From Patescibacteria group bacterium (lineage in GTDB: Bacteria; Patescibacteriota; Minisyncoccia; Phycocordibacterales; BOKC01): a stretch of DNA of 32,631 nt. Of this stretch, positions 2,035 to 20,227 are shown piece after piece (within the stretch, counting starts at the first letter, position 1; the number at the start of each line of letters is the position of its first letter). A program made the position numbers and the translations under genes. Location of the stretch: positions 519,640 through 552,270 of the forward strand of contig JBBTWE010000001.1 of the NCBI GenBank assembly GCA_038062955.1, in the 5' to 3' direction. The notes under the pieces are model-generated. The model was not told where the DNA came from, made no database searches, and was given only the letters and a program-made list of their open reading frames with translations.

Positions 2035-2057
2035 GATGGTAAGGATTTCGTACGGGA

Positions 2058-3869: not shown

Positions 3870-4760
3870 TTATAGATCTTTTTCTGCGTCTAAGAATACA
3901 TCTATATTACCATTTAATACACTTTCGACATCACTTGTTTCAACATTTGTTCTGTGGTCTTTTACCATTTTGTACGGATGCATAACGTAAGACCTTATCT
4001 GGCTTCCCCATTCAATATCAGTGGTCTTTGAAACGTACATTTCTCCTTCTTTACTGATTCTTTCTTTCTCCAACGCATGAAAAATTTTCCCACGGAGAAT
4101 TTGCATGGCTTTTTCTTTATTTTGGGCTTGAGAACGCTGATTTTCGGAGTGAGCAGCCAAATTTGTTGGAATATGCACCACCCTCACGGCCGTTTCTCTT
4201 TTGTTAACGTTCTGTCCACCGGGGCCACTTGATCTTGAGAACTCAAGTCTAATTTCTTTGTCCGGAATTTCGAGCTCGGTCACCTTATCAAATTTTGGAA
4301 TAACTTCGACAAGCGAAAAAGAAGTGTGACGGAGTTTCTTCGCGGAGAATGGAGAGACGCGGACCAAACGATGGACCCCGGACTCGTTTTTTAAAGTTCC
4401 ATAAACATTTTTGCCACTTATTTCAATTGTGACGTTTCTAAATCCCCCGTGATCGTTCTGGTGTTCATGCACCAGAGAAACAGACCAGCCCTGCTTTTCT
4501 ATAAATTTGTAATACATTTCCAAAAGCATATGAGAAAAATCTTCAGCATCGTCTCCGCCTGCACCTGAAAAAATACTCATGATAGCATCACCTTTATCGT
4601 ATCTTCCGATGCCATCTTTCTCTAGCTTAAGATCATTGTATTCTTTAACAATTTTTTGGGCATGATCCTTGTTTTGCCAAAACGAGGCGTCAGCCATATC
4701 ACGCTCCAACTCTAATATTCGAGCTAGAATCTCTTCACTTTTGTTTTTCCTTTCTTTCAT
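3870..4760 (-). CDS. prfB: Peptide chain release factor 2 (short form, single ORF)
   Basis: 296 aa. SPF tripeptide (RVSPFS) marks RF2. GGQ motif in SGPGGQNVN. RF-1/PCRF domain order. No upstream frame-0 ORF ending in CTT TGA was found. Confidence 0.93.
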   Translation of the reverse strand: MKERKNKSEEILARILELERDMADASFWQNKDHAQKIVKEYNDLKLEKDGIGRYDKGDAIMSIFSGAGGDDAEDFSHMLLEMYYKFIEKQGWSVSLVHEHQNDHGGFRNVTIEISGKNVYGTLKNESGVHRLVRVSPFSAKKLRHTSFSLVEVIPKFDKVTELEIPDKEIRLEFSRSSGPGGQNVNKRETAVRVVHIPTNLAAHSENQRSQAQNKEKAMQILRGKIFHALEKERISKEGEMYVSKTTDIEWGSQIRSYVMHPYKMVKDHRTNVETSDVESVLNGNIDVFLDAEKDL

Positions 4761-4876
4761 CCCGTACGAAAGTAGGACACGGACTGAATAAATTATCCTT
4801 GCCCTATTTTAAAGTTAAATAATAAATTCAATGTTCCTGATTACATTCCCGCATGGTGTCCGTGACTTCGTACGGG
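4761..4876. mobile_element. MITE-like palindromic insertion E1, abutting the prfB start codon
   Basis: Imperfect terminal inverted repeats cccgtacgaaagtaggacacggac (4761-4784) and gtccgtgacttcgtacggg (4858-4876). Flanked by direct repeat ttcat (4756-4760 and 4878-4882), which is ATGAA on the coding strand. No ORF inside. Confidence 0.5.
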
Positions 4877-4974
4877 ATTCATATTCGCGTCCTGATTATA
4901 TAAGAAGATGTTGGATTTTAAAAATGAGATAAAGGGCATTAACCCTTTGATCCGTCTTCGCTCGCGGATCATGG

Positions 4975-5010
4975 GAATGTAGGTCGATCGGTGATGATCG
5001 ACCTACATTC
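4975..5010. repeat. Perfect 15-bp inverted repeat hairpin
   Basis: gaatgtaggtcgatc (4975-4989), loop ggtgat, gatcgacctacattc (4996-5010). The flanks continue as a degenerate palindrome (cgctcgcgg / ccgctcgc). The string atgatcgaccta recurs near 16470. Confidence 0.8.
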
Positions 5011-5150: not shown

Positions 5151-5272
5151 TGTCTACATACAATATACAGGAATTTAAAATAAAGAGAAGTCATGATTGT
5201 TCATACAGAACATCAAAGATGATTGAAAATATTTGAAAAACGTAATAAGGTTATAAGGTTGAAAAATAAACT

Positions 5273-5540
5273 GCCGTTGTAGCTCAGTTGGTAGAGCACG
5301 TCATTGGTAAATCAAATTGCCCTTCATTTTGGAAACATAGTGATGAAGCCCGAATTACGGTTAAAGTCCATGCGAGTGGATAAGACCGTGGCGAAAGAGT
5401 CGCCCGAACGACTGACAAGGGACGCTAAATCAAAAGGATATGCGTAAGATACAGTCTAACCCTTTTATAAGTCGGTTGCGACGAAACTAAGGTATATGTG
5501 AATGACGAGGTCTCCGGTTCAATCCCGGACAACGGCTCCA
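5273..5540 (+). tRNA. tRNA-Thr(GGU) interrupted by a 192-nt insert in the anticodon loop; CCA encoded
   Basis: Exon 1 (5273-5308) is GCCGTTG TA GCTC AGTTGGTA GAGC A CGTCA TTGGT. Exon 2 (5501-5540) is AA TGACG AGGTC TCCGG TTCAATC CCGGA CAACGGC T CCA. Joined, they give a canonical cloverleaf with every stem Watson-Crick and anticodon loop TTGGTAA. Confidence 0.85.
5309..5500 (+). ncRNA. Putative group I intron within tRNA-Thr(GGU), inserted between positions 36 and 37
   Basis: The 5' exon ends in U5308 and the insert ends in G5500. A P1-like hairpin GGT|AA-ATCAAA-TTGCC puts a U.G wobble at the 5' junction. Further helices: CTTCAT 5322-5327/ATGAAG 5343-5348, ACGG 5357-5360/CCGT 5386-5389, TCCA 5367-5370/TGGA 5377-5380, GGCGA 5390-5394/TCGCC 5400-5404. 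CTAAGG lies 8 nt before the 3' junction. No ORF inside. Not confirmed by a covariance model. Confidence 0.5.
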
Positions 5541-5602: not shown

Positions 5603-5623
5603 AAAAAAATGCCGATGTAGCTC
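5603..5623 (+). repeat. Orphan duplicate of the 5' end of tRNA-Thr(CGU) plus its upstream A-tract
   Basis: aaaaaaatgccgatgtagctc at 5603-5623 versus aaaaaattgccgatgtagctc at 5722-5742. Only the first 13 nt of the tRNA are duplicated; no cloverleaf follows. Confidence 0.6.
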
Positions 5624-5662
5624 CCCAGTAGTATAAGCTCGAGTACTCGCTTAACTACGGGG
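5623..5662. repeat. 40-nt palindromic unit of the CCCGTAG...CTACGGG family
   Basis: ccccagtag (5623-5631) pairs with ctacgggg (5655-5662). Inner helices are aagc/gctt and cga/tcg. It resembles the nested unit gtcccgtagtgaaagc-ttcg-cttctactacaggac at 19564-19598. Confidence 0.5.
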
Positions 5663-5729: not shown

Positions 5730-5802
5730 GCCGATGTAGCTCAGTTAGCAGAGCACCACTTTCGTAAAGTGGGGGTCGACAGTGCAATTCTGTCCATCGG
5801 CT
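5730..5802 (+). tRNA. tRNA-Thr(CGU) with non-canonical D- and T-loops
   Basis: GCCGATG TA GCTC AGTTAGCA GAGC A CCACT TTCGTAA AGTGG GGGTC GACAG TGCAATT CTGTC CATCGGC T. All stems are perfect. The D-loop has AG where GG is expected. The T-loop is TGCAATT, with G at position 55. CCA is not encoded. Confidence 0.85.
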
Positions 5803-6698: not shown

Positions 6699-6769
6699 TT
6701 GCGGGGCCCGGATGTGCGCCGGGGCCTCAAGGTTATGAGCCTTGCGAGCTACTGCTACTCAACCCCGCG
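6699..6769 (-). tRNA. Initiator-type tRNA-fMet(CAU) with non-canonical D- and T-loops
   Basis: Reverse complement: CGCGGGG TT GAGT AGCAGTA GCTC G CAAGG CTCATAA CCTTG AGGC CCCGG CGCACAT CCGGG CCCCGCA A. It has the C1xA72 mismatch and the A11:U24 pair that mark bacterial initiators, and it aligns arm by arm with E. coli tRNA-fMet. The T-loop is CGCACAT and the D-loop lacks GG. Only two G:C pairs lie next to the anticodon loop. Confidence 0.72.
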
Positions 6770-7651: not shown

Positions 7652-7743
7652 AAGAGCAGATTTAAGATTCTAGATATACGATTTAAGATTTAAATACAAT
7701 AAAAAATCCGGGGGCTCCAAATGTGGAAGTTCTTATTATTTTA

Positions 7744-13400: not shown

Positions 13401-13533
13401 GGGATGTGATAGCGATTTCTAATTTAAATATCAGATTTATGATTTAAGATTTAAGATTTTTTCACTTCTTGATCTTTGATTTTTAAATTTGTCATGCTTC
13501 GTGCTTCAAATTTCTGTTCCTTATTATACTATT

Positions 13534-18362: not shown

Positions 18363-18376
18363 AATAAATTAGGATG

Positions 18377-18463
18377 TTAGAATAATTAGAGGTATTAGAA
18401 GAATTAGGTTAGTTTTATTTTGAATTTATTTGCTAATTCCTCTAGTGCCTCTACTTCCTCTAA
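18377..18463. repeat. Imperfect long inverted repeat built from TAGAGG-like units (pilT-pilC spacer)
   Basis: ttagaataattagaggtattagaagaattagg (18377-18408) versus the reverse complement of gctaattcctctagtgcctctacttcctctaa (18432-18463). About 24 of 32 positions are complementary. Confidence 0.4.
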
Positions 18464-18481: not shown

Positions 18482-19543
18482 TTAAATCAGTCTTTCGAGA
18501 GTTTTAATATTATTGGCATACCTGTACGCTGTTTCTGCGGTAATTGAACCATTTCTAACAAGCTCTACTAAAGAAGTATTTAGATCCACCATACCAAGCG
18601 AAGAACCTGTTTGGATCATTGTGTCTATTTCATGAATTCTATTCTCCCGAATGATATTTGCCACTGCCCCAGTATTTATTAAAAGTTCACATGCTGGAAT
18701 CTGTCCACCGGAAATTTTTGGAACCAACCTTTGGGAGAAAATACCAGAGAGACTGCTTGCAAGCTGAACCCTTATCTGACTTTGCTGTCCAGATGGAAAA
18801 GCGTCGACAATTCTTTCAATGGTTCTTGAGGCGCTATTAGTATGCAAAGTTGAGAAAATCAAATGTCCGGTTTCGGCGGCGGTTACGGCAGTTGAGATAG
18901 TTTCATTATCTCTCATTTCTCCAAGCATAACCACATTGGCGTCCTGTCTGAAGACATTTTTTAGACCACTGTGAAAATCGACTGTATCAGCGCGAACTTC
19001 TCTTTGATCAATAATGGACTTTTTTTCTTTGAAAATATATTCAATCGGATCTTCAATGGTAATGATATATTCGCTTCTTTTTTGATTTATAATCTCAATC
19101 ATTGAAGCCAAAGTGGTGCTTTTACCTTGTCCAGCTGGTCCCACCACAAGGAAAAATCCTTGCTTCTTTTCTGTAAAACTCTCTAAAATTGGTGGTAGAT
19201 TAAGCTCTTGTATGGTTTTAATTTTTTCTGGAATATGACGCAAAGCAATTCCAATAAGACCTTGCTGAAAATAAACATTTCCTCTAAACCTCTCTTTGTG
19301 GTTATGACTGTATGCAAAATCAGTTTGCTTGAGATCGATGAATCTTTTCTTATTCTCAACATTTAGTATCTCGTCCAAAATTCCATAAATATATTCTTTT
19401 GTCACAACAGAATTGCTAGAGATCGGCATTAAATTTCCGTTTCGACGGATGATAGGCTGTCTGCCTTCTCCCAAATGTAAATCTGAACCACCCTCATTTA
19501 GAAGGATAGTTACTAAATCAATTAACTCTTTTTTAAAATTCAT
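18482..19543 (-). CDS. pilT: Type IV pilus retraction ATPase
   Basis: 353 aa. N-terminal GGSDLHL, Walker A GPAGQGKST, and the His box TLHTNSA. The size and absence of an N-terminal GspE-N domain fit PilT rather than PilB. Confidence 0.95.
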   Translation of the reverse strand: MNFKKELIDLVTILLNEGGSDLHLGEGRQPIIRRNGNLMPISSNSVVTKEYIYGILDEILNVENKKRFIDLKQTDFAYSHNHKERFRGNVYFQQGLIGIALRHIPEKIKTIQELNLPPILESFTEKKQGFFLVVGPAGQGKSTTLASMIEIINQKRSEYIITIEDPIEYIFKEKKSIIDQREVRADTVDFHSGLKNVFRQDANVVMLGEMRDNETISTAVTAAETGHLIFSTLHTNSASRTIERIVDAFPSGQQSQIRVQLASSLSGIFSQRLVPKISGGQIPACELLINTGAVANIIRENRIHEIDTMIQTGSSLGMVDLNTSLVELVRNGSITAETAYRYANNIKTLERLI

Positions 19544-19687
19544 CCCGTAGTGAAATTTCAGGTCGTCCCGTAGTGAAAGCTTCGCTTCTACTACAGGACT
19601 ATCCTGGAATATTCTTTTGATAAAAACTAAAACTTTCTATTACTTATATTCTAACAAATTATTTGCAACCTGAAATTCTACTACGGG
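19544..19687. mobile_element. MITE-like palindromic insertion E2, abutting the pilT start codon
   Basis: Terminal inverted repeats cccgtagtgaaatttcaggt (19544-19563) and acctgaaattctactacggg (19668-19687), 19 of 20 complementary. Flanked by direct repeat attcat (19538-19543 and 19688-19693), which is ATGAAT on the coding strand. Contains a nested 35-nt palindrome at 19564-19598. Confidence 0.5.
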
Positions 19688-19712
19688 ATTCATCCATTCA
19701 GCTCTCTCCATT

Positions 19713-20111: not shown

Positions 20112-20133
20112 AAATTTAGTTGGATTAGAAGGT

Positions 20134-20209
20134 TAGAGGAATTAGAGGTACTAGATTATTTTAACATATCAAACTTATTTTTCTTTTCCTACCTCCTCTA
20201 ATACCTCTA
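20134..20209. repeat. Imperfect inverted repeat of TAGAGG-like units (pilB-regulator spacer)
   Basis: tagaggaattagaggtactag (20134-20154) versus the reverse complement of cctacctcctctaatacctcta (20188-20209). About 17 of 21 positions are complementary. Same unit type as 18377-18463. Confidence 0.4.
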
Positions 20210-20227
20210 TTTTACTAACTTCTCTAG

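Follow-up and report, generated by a model that had tools for sequence, protein, structure and literature searches.

A palindromic mobile element at the prfB start codon of a groundwater Paceibacterota bacterium, very probably one copy of a start-codon-associated family of the Candidate Phyla Radiation

A palindromic element abuts the start codon of prfB

The window analysed here is a stretch of 32,631 nucleotides from a Paceibacterota bacterium of the Candidate Phyla Radiation (CPR) from Hainich groundwater (assembly GCA_038062955.1, contig JBBTWE010000001.1, positions 519,640 to 552,270). Its minus strand carries prfB, which encodes release factor 2 (RF2), and a 116-bp palindromic element that directly adjoins the prfB start codon. 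Taken together, our data indicate that this palindrome is very probably a copy of a non-autonomous mobile element family of CPR/Patescibacteria that resembles MITEs (miniature inverted-repeat transposable elements) and REPINs, integrates at ATGAA start codons and restores the start in doing so. A sister element has inserted at the start of pilT within the same 32 kb. The positions of all features are listed in Table 1.

On the coding strand, the order of features is TATAAT, cAGGAcgcgaat, ATGAAT, the element (CCCGTACGAAGTCACGGAC...GTCCGTGTCCTACTTTCGTACGGG) and ATGAAAGAAAGG, with an ATGAA direct repeat (4882-4878 and 4760-4756) on either side of the element. The two arms are paired over 10 + 7 bp around a bulge. 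The perfect inverted repeat is 12 nt when the flanking AT is counted (ATCCCGTACGAA/TTCGTACGGGAT), and beyond it the paired bases at the element ends extend to 17-21. As RNA, the element folds into a single long bulged stem of -40.8 kcal/mol (z = -2.8). The initial annotation, made from the sequence alone, had described a 116-bp palindrome with terminal inverted repeats of 19-24 bp and ATGAA on both sides, and had noted that the distal ATG opens a 13-codon open reading frame (ORF; MNPVRSHGHHAGM-stop, 4882-4841). Every one of these sequence details was borne out.

The motif ATCCCGTA occurs 5 times in the window compared to 0.53 expected occurrences, and none of 100 shuffled sequences reached 5. 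For the elements of the window, we used profiles built solely from elements of other genomes, with the window sequences excluded. Such a profile matches positions 4876-4761 with an E-value of 4.8e-12 in the orientation of the gene, compared to 0.0036 on the opposite strand. The identical arrangement is present in six independent assemblies (L001-L006), so an assembly artefact is excluded. Rfam covariance models gave nothing at gathering score in the window and nothing credible at E<=10 over positions 4650-5000, and no match to the element was found in the phage and plasmid collections.

The RF2 encoded in the window lacks ~70 N-terminal amino acids of domain 1 as well as the frameshift site. 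RF2 proteins of this clade are short (~290-300 aa) and begin past the position of the canonical +1 frameshift site; therefore, the usual autoregulatory frameshift of prfB is absent. Only 12 nt separate the end of the TATAAT box from the distal ATG, and the native leader is thus very short. With this spacing, the AGGA that would serve as the Shine-Dalgarno (SD) motif of the uninterrupted gene may coincide with the transcript's 5' end or precede it.

Table 1. Positions of the features discussed in the text. Coordinates are those of the window except in the last row, where they refer to the individual loci.
Feature	Position	Strand	Remarks
Solo TCCCGTACGAAATCC	2043..2057	-	Directly after the ftsX stop, 8 nt before pyrG ATGAAAAAT
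prfB, short-form RF2, 296 aa	3870..4760	-	Match to solved RF2 structures, E = 2e-75
Gene-proximal ATGAA copy	4756..4760	-	ATG at 4760-4758 is the probable functional RF2 start
Palindromic element, 116 bp, subfamily 1 (CCCGTACGAA...TTCGTACGGG)	4761..4876	-	At the prfB start; absent from L007/L008; profile match
Gene-proximal (3') arm, gtccgtgTCCTActttcgtacggg, 24 nt	4761..4784	-	Contains the family-typical YCT bulge
Short ORF, MNPVRSHGHHAGM-stop, 13 codons	4841..4882	-	Opened by the distal ATG
Gene-distal arm (5' on the mRNA), cccgtacgaagtcacggac, 19 nt	4858..4876	-	
Gene-distal ATGAA copy plus T (4877)	4877..4882	-	The T always precedes the element; original upstream context retained
AGGA, putative SD of the uninterrupted gene	4890..4893	-	7 nt before the distal ATG
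Promoter-like TTTAAA-16-TATAAT	4895..4922	-	Lies before the distal ATG; also conserved in relatives with the empty site
pilT-like ATPase	18482..19543	-	Start ATGAATTTTAAAAAAGA adjoins the element
Second element, 144 bp, subfamily 2 (CCCGTAGTAGAA...TTTCACTACGGG)	19544..19687	-	On the pilT-like start codon
Gene-distal ATGAAT copy of the pilT element	19688..19693	-	Preceded by GGAGAG; opens a 17-codon short ORF (19693-19640)
Y1 transposase genes in other loci	L054 1156-1836; L085 3664-4302; L139 7168-7815; L180 4378-5136; L236 2897-3850		

Close relatives retain the empty site

The closest RF2 relatives, L007 and L008, come from other metagenomes and share 95% and 94% protein identity and 88% and 87% nucleotide identity, respectively, with the gene of the window. 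Neither carries the element. Their empty site reads tcttcttatataatcaggacgcgaat/ATGAAGGAAAAG, and the junction ...AGGACGCGAAT/ATGAAGGAA is the one that had been predicted from the window. Both relatives have ...TCTTCTTATATAATCAGGAC(G/A)C(G/A)AAT/ATGAAGGAAAAG, and the promoter-like box seen in the window lies upstream. Alignment of the window to L007 and L008 opens one clean 122-bp gap, consisting of the element, the T and one copy of ATGAA, while the 40-nt upstream region is near-identical. Removal of the element together with one repeat copy had been proposed to restore a normal SD-to-start spacing, and both relatives have the empty site expected on this view. In a more distant RF2 relative (89%), the upstream region is unrelated.

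We conclude that the palindrome at prfB is real and that it stems from the fairly recent insertion of a small mobile element. Insertion into the prfB start took place in this lineage once it had split from the relatives with 87-88% nucleotide identity in prfB. Precise loss of the element in those relatives would be the alternative to insertion after the split.

A second element lies at the start of pilT

A repeat search over the whole window detected a second element, at the start codon of a pilT-like gene. The profile from other genomes matches it with an E-value of 3.2e-11 in the orientation of the gene. The coding strand reads GGATGAAT-[element]-ATGAATTTTAAAAAA, the same placement as at prfB, and the two elements have only their termini and flanks in common. 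Relatives of pilT that lack this element keep the start ATGAATTTTAAAAAAGA.

A solo TCCCGTACGAAATCC between ftsX and pyrG gave a weak profile match (positions 1-13, E=0.49). It may be a remnant of the end of a deleted element, and the case for this is weak. The relatives L009-L011 have an unrelated spacer at the corresponding place.

Related elements are widespread in CPR genomes

A genome collection was scanned with the pattern ATGAATCCCGTA-N(103-133)-TACGGGAT, which requires ATGAAT on the left and only AT on the right and demands neither GAA nor an ORF. Of 110 matches, 103 were in CPR lineages. The remaining 7 were in non-CPR genomes, have arms that are not complementary and are chance matches. 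The 103 CPR copies span Paceibacterota, Saccharibacteria, Wolfe-, Doudna-, Nomura-, Yanofsky-, Zambryski- and Wildermuthbacteria. A scan of metagenomes, in which the three bases before AAT on the left were left free, gave at least 117 matches, 103 of them with good arms among the matches listed.

Members of the family are 115-145 bp long and have no coding capacity, their short ORFs being unconserved. Two subfamilies were distinguished: subfamily 1 (CCCGTACGAAAT...ATTTCGTACGGG) is ~115-122 bp long and carries GTAC, while subfamily 2 (CCCGTAGTAGAA...TTTCACTACGGG), to which GTAG is restricted, is ~124-145 bp long. The conserved part comprises ~20 nt at each end, and the interior is AT-rich and variable. 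Ends of ~12 nt are conserved even between very distant CPR classes, and compensatory base pairs are present in stem 1. In subfamily 1, the YCT bulge lies in the gene-proximal arm of 85 of 95 copies and in the opposite arm of 1 of 95. The orientation of the element relative to the gene is fixed. We considered whether subfamily 2 occurs in both orientations and rejected this, as the GTGAAA/TTCTAC variants are not clear inversions.

The host genes are housekeeping genes unrelated to each other and include those for SecY, FtsX, HisRS, MurG, HtpX, class II aldolase, a PIF1 helicase, a PfkB kinase and an M16 peptidase. For several of them (e.g. MurG, aldolase, AAA_30), Pfam profiles align from residues 1-3. 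Copies at different genes of the same genome are up to 100% identical, indicating recent spread by copy-and-paste. Two, and in some cases three, elements can stand in tandem before one gene (ATGAAT-el-ATGAAT-el-ATGAAA), sometimes with subfamilies 1 and 2 mixed.

Tandem arrays were observed at L068 6767-7031, L106 6132-6397 and L052 3930-4208, in L020, L031, L090 and L101, and especially in Wolfebacteria NORP133. A class of short hairpins of 65-67 bp was also seen (L031 3000-3064 and L125 5160-5226). These have the same CCCGTAGTGAAA...TTCTACTACGGG ends, do not lie at start codons and are flanked by the direct repeats GATAAC (L031) and GTTTGAT (L125).

The search for further copies suggested by the initial annotation thus yielded one more in the window, at pilT, and >200 in CPR genomes and metagenomes. 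A conserved leader, the lack of empty sites and the lack of extra copies had been named as observations that would speak for a regulatory leader instead of an insertion, and none of the three holds. Full-text literature searches found no description of the family, although absence there is not proof of novelty. The element at prfB belongs to a family of palindromic mobile elements associated with start codons, which is widespread in the CPR and apparently undescribed.

Placement at start codons defines the family

In the genome scan, the right flank is ATGAA in 100 of the 103 CPR copies. Six of the 103 are the upstream member of a tandem doublet. For 92 of the 97 non-tandem copies, the right ATG begins an in-frame ORF that is at least 60 codons long or runs off the locus. 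Going upstream from the distal ATG, the reading frame is soon closed (median ~7 codons), which places the elements at the 5' ends of ORFs as opposed to the interior of longer ones. Elements of the family integrate at start codons that read ATGAA, with their orientation fixed, and yield ATGAA-T-[CCCGTA...TACGGG]-ATGAA. Since ATGAA is left on both sides, an intact start lies directly 3' of the element. Placement at the start codon is the defining property of the whole family, and the mechanism behind this specificity could prove to be the part that is new in kind.

We compared this distribution to the ATGAA sites available in the same 733 kb of CPR loci: 2061 are inside ORFs, 293 are non-coding and 173 are at called starts. 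If any non-coding ATGAA were acceptable, 37% of the elements would be expected at starts (173 vs 293; P = 1.7e-33). Insertion at ATGAA followed by purging of genic copies would place ~63% at non-coding sites, compared to the observed 5 of 97 or fewer.

Other landmarks were considered and rejected. No sequence preference was detected around the sites beyond ATGAA, which rules against an extended target motif. A -10-like box lies 6-9 nt before the distal ATG in 32% of elements compared to 14% of controls, as might be seen if transcription starts (leaderless promoters) were targeted. However, 36% of element-bearing genes (28% of controls) have a same-strand upstream gene ending within 30 nt, so transcription starts are not the landmark. 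Survivorship, with the element acting as a "deletion shield", is unlikely to be the sole cause of the bias, as same-genome copies that are 93-100% identical are all at starts.

Searches that made no demand on the flanks provide thinner evidence than the flanked scans. Most of the additional elements detected in this way again occupy starts (the pilT copy of the window; L107, L138 and L158; L240). In rescans of the examined loci, only about three hairpins with CCCGTA ends lie off starts (L021:895, L031:3000 and L125:5160), two of which belong to the 65-67-bp class. The element in L158 has ATGTAT on both sides. Flank-free scans of viral contigs gave 0 matches and 1 match, the latter being L240 411-542 on an IMG/VR contig classed as viral. 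This element has the variant ends CCCCGTAG...CTACGGGG and a different junction geometry, with a TATG direct repeat instead of ATGAA, and is situated on the start codon of a tsaD-like gene beside a tRNA gene.

RF2 probably starts at the gene-proximal ATG

The two copies of the start codon differ in how well they are kept. The left triplet is ATG in 83 of the 117 metagenome matches listed, and the distal ATG has decayed in ~15% of copies among the matches listed. The decayed forms are ACGAAT, ATTAAT, the alleles GTTAAT/TTTAAT, TATAAT, TCTAAT, CCTAAT and GTGAAT. Most of these copies have a long ORF from the proximal ATG, with the exception of an ACGAAT copy (L131/L171). The G of the proximal ATG, which was left free in the genome scan, is kept in 102 of 103 copies, the exception being L041. 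Furthermore, RF2 relatives begin with MKEKKN at the position equivalent to the proximal ATG of the window. Because the proximal G is kept, the distal copy decays and RF2 relatives start equivalently, we infer from sequence comparison that the proximal ATG (4760-4758) is where RF2 starts and that the gene can do without the distal one. The initial annotation had placed an RF2 start without an SD against the 3' arm of the hairpin; in agreement with this, the proximal ATG abuts the stem.

An SD-like motif stands before the distal ATG in 11 of 103 copies and before the proximal ATG in 7 of 103; among control ORFs of the same loci, 14% have one. About half of the 16S rRNAs of Parcubacteria are without the anti-SD motif (PMC9297842). 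Since SD motifs are rare in these lineages, lost proximity to an SD is no special problem here. It had been suggested that the hairpin brings the SD and the start codon together. With SD-like motifs before the first ATG in only 11 of 103 copies, this suggestion is unsupported, and it is also unnecessary.

Across the family, the short ORFs have 4-49 codons and always begin with MNPV because the arm itself encodes these residues. A conserved leader peptide was rejected, as nothing is conserved past MNPV. Hexamers resembling a -10 box are common on both strands of the AT-rich interior, with only a weak positional peak, and no promoter was called within either element of the window (prfB, pilT).

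From these data, expression of prfB might be envisaged as follows. The distal ATG would keep the old promoter and leader and would open a throw-away short ORF. Initiation at the proximal ATG would be independent of an SD, as is the norm in SD-poor lineages, and ribosomes on the short ORF may melt the 5' arm and thereby help initiation at the proximal ATG. Alternatively, a promoter inside the AT-rich interior could drive the gene, for which the positional signal is weak. Of the ways around the stem, melting by ribosomes and an internal promoter would be the most economical.

Route of insertion

The initial annotation had called the element a MITE-like insertion with a target-site duplication. 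The non-autonomous mobile insertion stands, while a strict duplication resulting from a staggered cut is unproven. Depending on where the boundary is drawn, the flanks represent a duplication of 5, 4 or 2 bp, or else a target plus the end of the element, and the empty site has one ATGAA. The direct repeat alone would thus be insufficient for inferring the insertion chemistry or for assigning it to a DDE enzyme. A single-strand or site-specific recombinase that inserts next to a pentanucleotide would give the same sequence outcome.

One such route, which we put forward tentatively and with less than even confidence, is that the element was folded as single-stranded DNA and inserted beside ATGAA by an HUH enzyme (IS200/IS605- or RAYT-type) or a tyrosine recombinase instead of a DDE transposase. 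The apparent repeat would then consist of the target and the element end. The specific, asymmetric 5-nt target, the fixed orientation to it and the conserved extrahelical bulge on one arm are consistent with this route. Some copies also have a local subterminal hairpin in the 3' arm (e.g. GGAAATC-TAAA-GATTTCC), and tandem junctions consist of 12-nt inverted arms around ATGAAT, like the 12-6-12 core of a recombinase site. Moreover, Y1 transposase genes exist in these genomes (Table 1), with matches to Y1_Tnp (PF01797, E=1e-6 to 8e-10; NF047646 below its cutoff). However, the hairpins flanking these genes are unrelated to the CCCGTA elements, and we rejected the RAYT/IS200-like genes as mobilisers since no link was found. 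Three further observations argue against the route: the two element ends are paired to one another as in classical terminal inverted repeats; the rare short hairpins with the same ends have ordinary, duplication-like 6-7-bp repeats (GATAAC in L031 and GTTTGAT in L125); and the L158 element has ATGTAT on both sides.

Evidence against a mobile origin, and alternative explanations

Several observations weigh against our interpretation of the palindrome as a mobile element that inserts at, and rebuilds, start codons. No transposase bounded by CCCGTA ends and no long pair of matching ends was found in ~1.9 Mb of loci, and the Y1 (IS200/RAYT-like) genes in five loci have their own short hairpin pairs. 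For the copy at pilT, the relatives provide no exact empty site, and the closest of them (L015, 91%) has a different palindromic element in the intergenic spacer. A sequence target combined with purging of coding insertions fails to explain why non-coding ATGAA is nearly unused. The proximal AUG directly abuts a stem of ~-40 kcal/mol, which is expected to hinder initiation, and how prfB is expressed behind the hairpin is something that we infer. Finally, L041 has ATA in place of the proximal ATG and a 341-codon ORF follows.

The near-absence of elements from non-coding ATGAA also bears on how starts are recognised. It is conceivable, though on balance doubtful, that the family is steered by some aspect of being a start codon beyond the ATGAA pentamer, or that it has been domesticated as a portable module for control of translation or mRNA in SD-poor CPR bacteria. 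Hints in this direction are the avoidance of non-coding sites, the lack of an extended motif, the use of operon-internal starts and the variant in L240.

Another explanation regards the element as first and foremost a cis-acting hairpin with a function in the control of translation or mRNA stability, which gene starts have recruited and whose position is due to positive selection and not to a preference in insertion. The hairpin would then gate the proximal AUG and be opened by translation of the short ORF, by temperature or by a binding protein. We consider this improbable. A control hairpin would account for the near-exclusive placement at starts, which ATGAA alone does not explain, and would fit the fixed orientation with a conserved bulge in the 3' arm, the ~12-nt ends shared across distant CPR classes, the compensatory pairs in stem 1 and the occurrence at operon-internal starts. 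However, presence or absence of the element varies between close relatives at an essential gene, neither the interior nor the short ORF is conserved, and the host genes are unrelated. Identical copies at different genes point to copy-and-paste spread, and covariation in the stem is equally expected for two transposon ends bound by one protein. The decay of the distal ATG also argues against control by the hairpin.

Much less likely still is neutralisation of the insert at the RNA level, by ribosomes that shunt or hop from the distal AUG across the base of the hairpin, or by excision of the hairpin, giving a leaderless mRNA with the proximal AUG at its 5' end. The matched AUGAA copies flanking a stable hairpin would suit such a process, as would the -10-like box before the distal ATG in 32% of elements, which suggests leaderless transcripts, and the long ORF of L041 despite its ATA. 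On the other hand, the ORF is intact in copies whose distal ATG has decayed, the proximal G is kept in all but one of 103 copies, and 36% of elements are at operon-internal starts. In addition, no Rfam family matches, and there is no sign of a processing enzyme. That the palindrome arose by chance or through misassembly, for which only the short length of the perfect repeat could be cited, is refuted by the six independent assemblies, by motif and fold statistics beyond chance, by the profile match and by the >200 related copies.

Insertion of a mobile element that rebuilds the start codon therefore remains our preferred explanation for the palindrome at prfB.

Other features of the window

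A tRNA-Thr(GGT) gene at 5272-5539 (+) has a 192-nt intron after position 37 and is detected by ARAGORN only with introns allowed; default ARAGORN and Rfam miss it. A length of 192 nt is unusually small for a bacterial tRNA intron, and a search for group I introns found none at E<=0.1. At ~5610-5660 (+), a sequence resembling a tRNA 5' fragment, GCCGATGTAGCTC..., repeats the beginning of the tRNA-Thr(CGT) gene located at 5730. A further tRNA at 6699-6769 (-) was detected by Rfam (45.7 bits) and not by ARAGORN.

Two other repeats were observed. The pilus genes are flanked (18368-18408 and 20124-20212) by a separate family of intergenic repeats that show inverted symmetry and are rich in TTAGR/TAGGC units, and in the closest relative the spacer upstream of pilT is filled by a related palindromic "taggc" element (L015 74-242). 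An AT-rich "GATTTAAGATT" repeat occurs in three intergenic spacers (308-352, 7653-7697 and 13421-13465).

Comparison with known systems

Small palindromic mobile elements are already known, and a family that lands almost only on starts and rebuilds them would represent a new survival strategy. Insertion of this kind would let selfish DNA persist where genomes are extremely compact and mostly essential. It also provides a natural experiment, with hundreds of essential CPR genes (RF2, SecY, FtsH-like, MurG, tRNA synthetases) carrying a stable hairpin against the start, and bears on initiation in lineages largely without SD pairing. In practical terms, the element ends are a simple and specific marker for CPR DNA, and the elements cause mis-annotation of gene starts through spurious short ORFs and shifted starts.

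Among the closest parallels are bacterial MITEs. As in those, the CPR element is <300 bp, is non-coding, has terminal inverted repeats, occurs in multiple copies and shows presence/absence polymorphism. Correia/NEMIS elements of Neisseria and MITEs are 100-155 bp long, with terminal inverted repeats, a flanking direct repeat and many copies; Correia-type elements form long stem-loop transcripts, have filled and empty sites between strains and are often co-transcribed with the downstream gene (PMC2229807). The CPR element is similar in its size range, inverted ends, direct repeat and filled versus empty sites. There is no sequence similarity, however, and Correia elements duplicate TA and take varied intergenic positions, whereas the CPR family uses ATGAA, start codons and one orientation. 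Apart from a partner insertion sequence (IS), none being known, it has the descriptive features of MITEs tabulated in PMC2229807 for Correia, ERIC, RUP and RPE; it differs from all of these in its target (ATGAA, not TA), its start-codon rule and its fixed orientation.

Rickettsia palindromic elements (RPE), selfish sequences of 105-146 bp, are found in the reduced genomes of host-dependent bacteria (Ogata et al. 2000, via PMC2229807). Like RPE, the CPR elements survive where essential genes stay undestroyed. RPE are tolerated as translated in-frame inserts, whereas the CPR family is untranslated and tolerated through the regenerated start codon. Because the inserted 122 bp are indivisible by three and stop codons end the short ORFs early, the CPR element is not of the RPE type.

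REPIN/RAYT elements are reportedly hairpin-forming, non-autonomous, ~100 bp long and extragenic, with no rule concerning start codons. The CCC-GTAG start of subfamily 2 is reminiscent of the 5' GTAG of REP sequences. However, the CPR family differs in that GTAG is confined to subfamily 2, no RAYT gene with matching flanks was found in the loci analysed and the elements lie on start codons. Members of the IS200/IS605 family, following the target rules of IS608 and ISDra2, insert beside a fixed 4-5-nt target in a fixed orientation. The CPR element does likewise (ATGAA in 100 of 103 copies), which is compatible with such a mechanism and not diagnostic of it. IS200/IS605 elements have separate subterminal hairpins, whereas the CPR ends pair with each other, and a local 3' hairpin is seen in some copies only. 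The likeness to integron attC sites is architectural only (conserved ends, a bulge and a similar size range), as the CPR ends, (T)CCCGTA...TACGGG(A), do not have the attC core RYYYAAC...GTTRRRY.

Translational bypass elements (the gap in phage T4 gene 60 and the mitochondrial "byps" of Magnusiomyces) lie inside ORFs and need an upstream take-off codon. The CPR element resembles them as a hairpin insert between matched codons that is harmless at the level of expression. It differs in lying before the ORF and in having a dispensable upstream copy, which has decayed in ~15% of copies among the matches listed while the ORFs are intact. Ty3, a eukaryotic long terminal repeat retroelement, integrates at the transcription start sites of RNA polymerase III. 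The analogy is limited to the use of a functional landmark at the gene start. For the CPR family this landmark is the start codon, since operon-internal starts are also used. In spirit, the strategy is comparable to that of in-frame RPEs or self-splicing introns.

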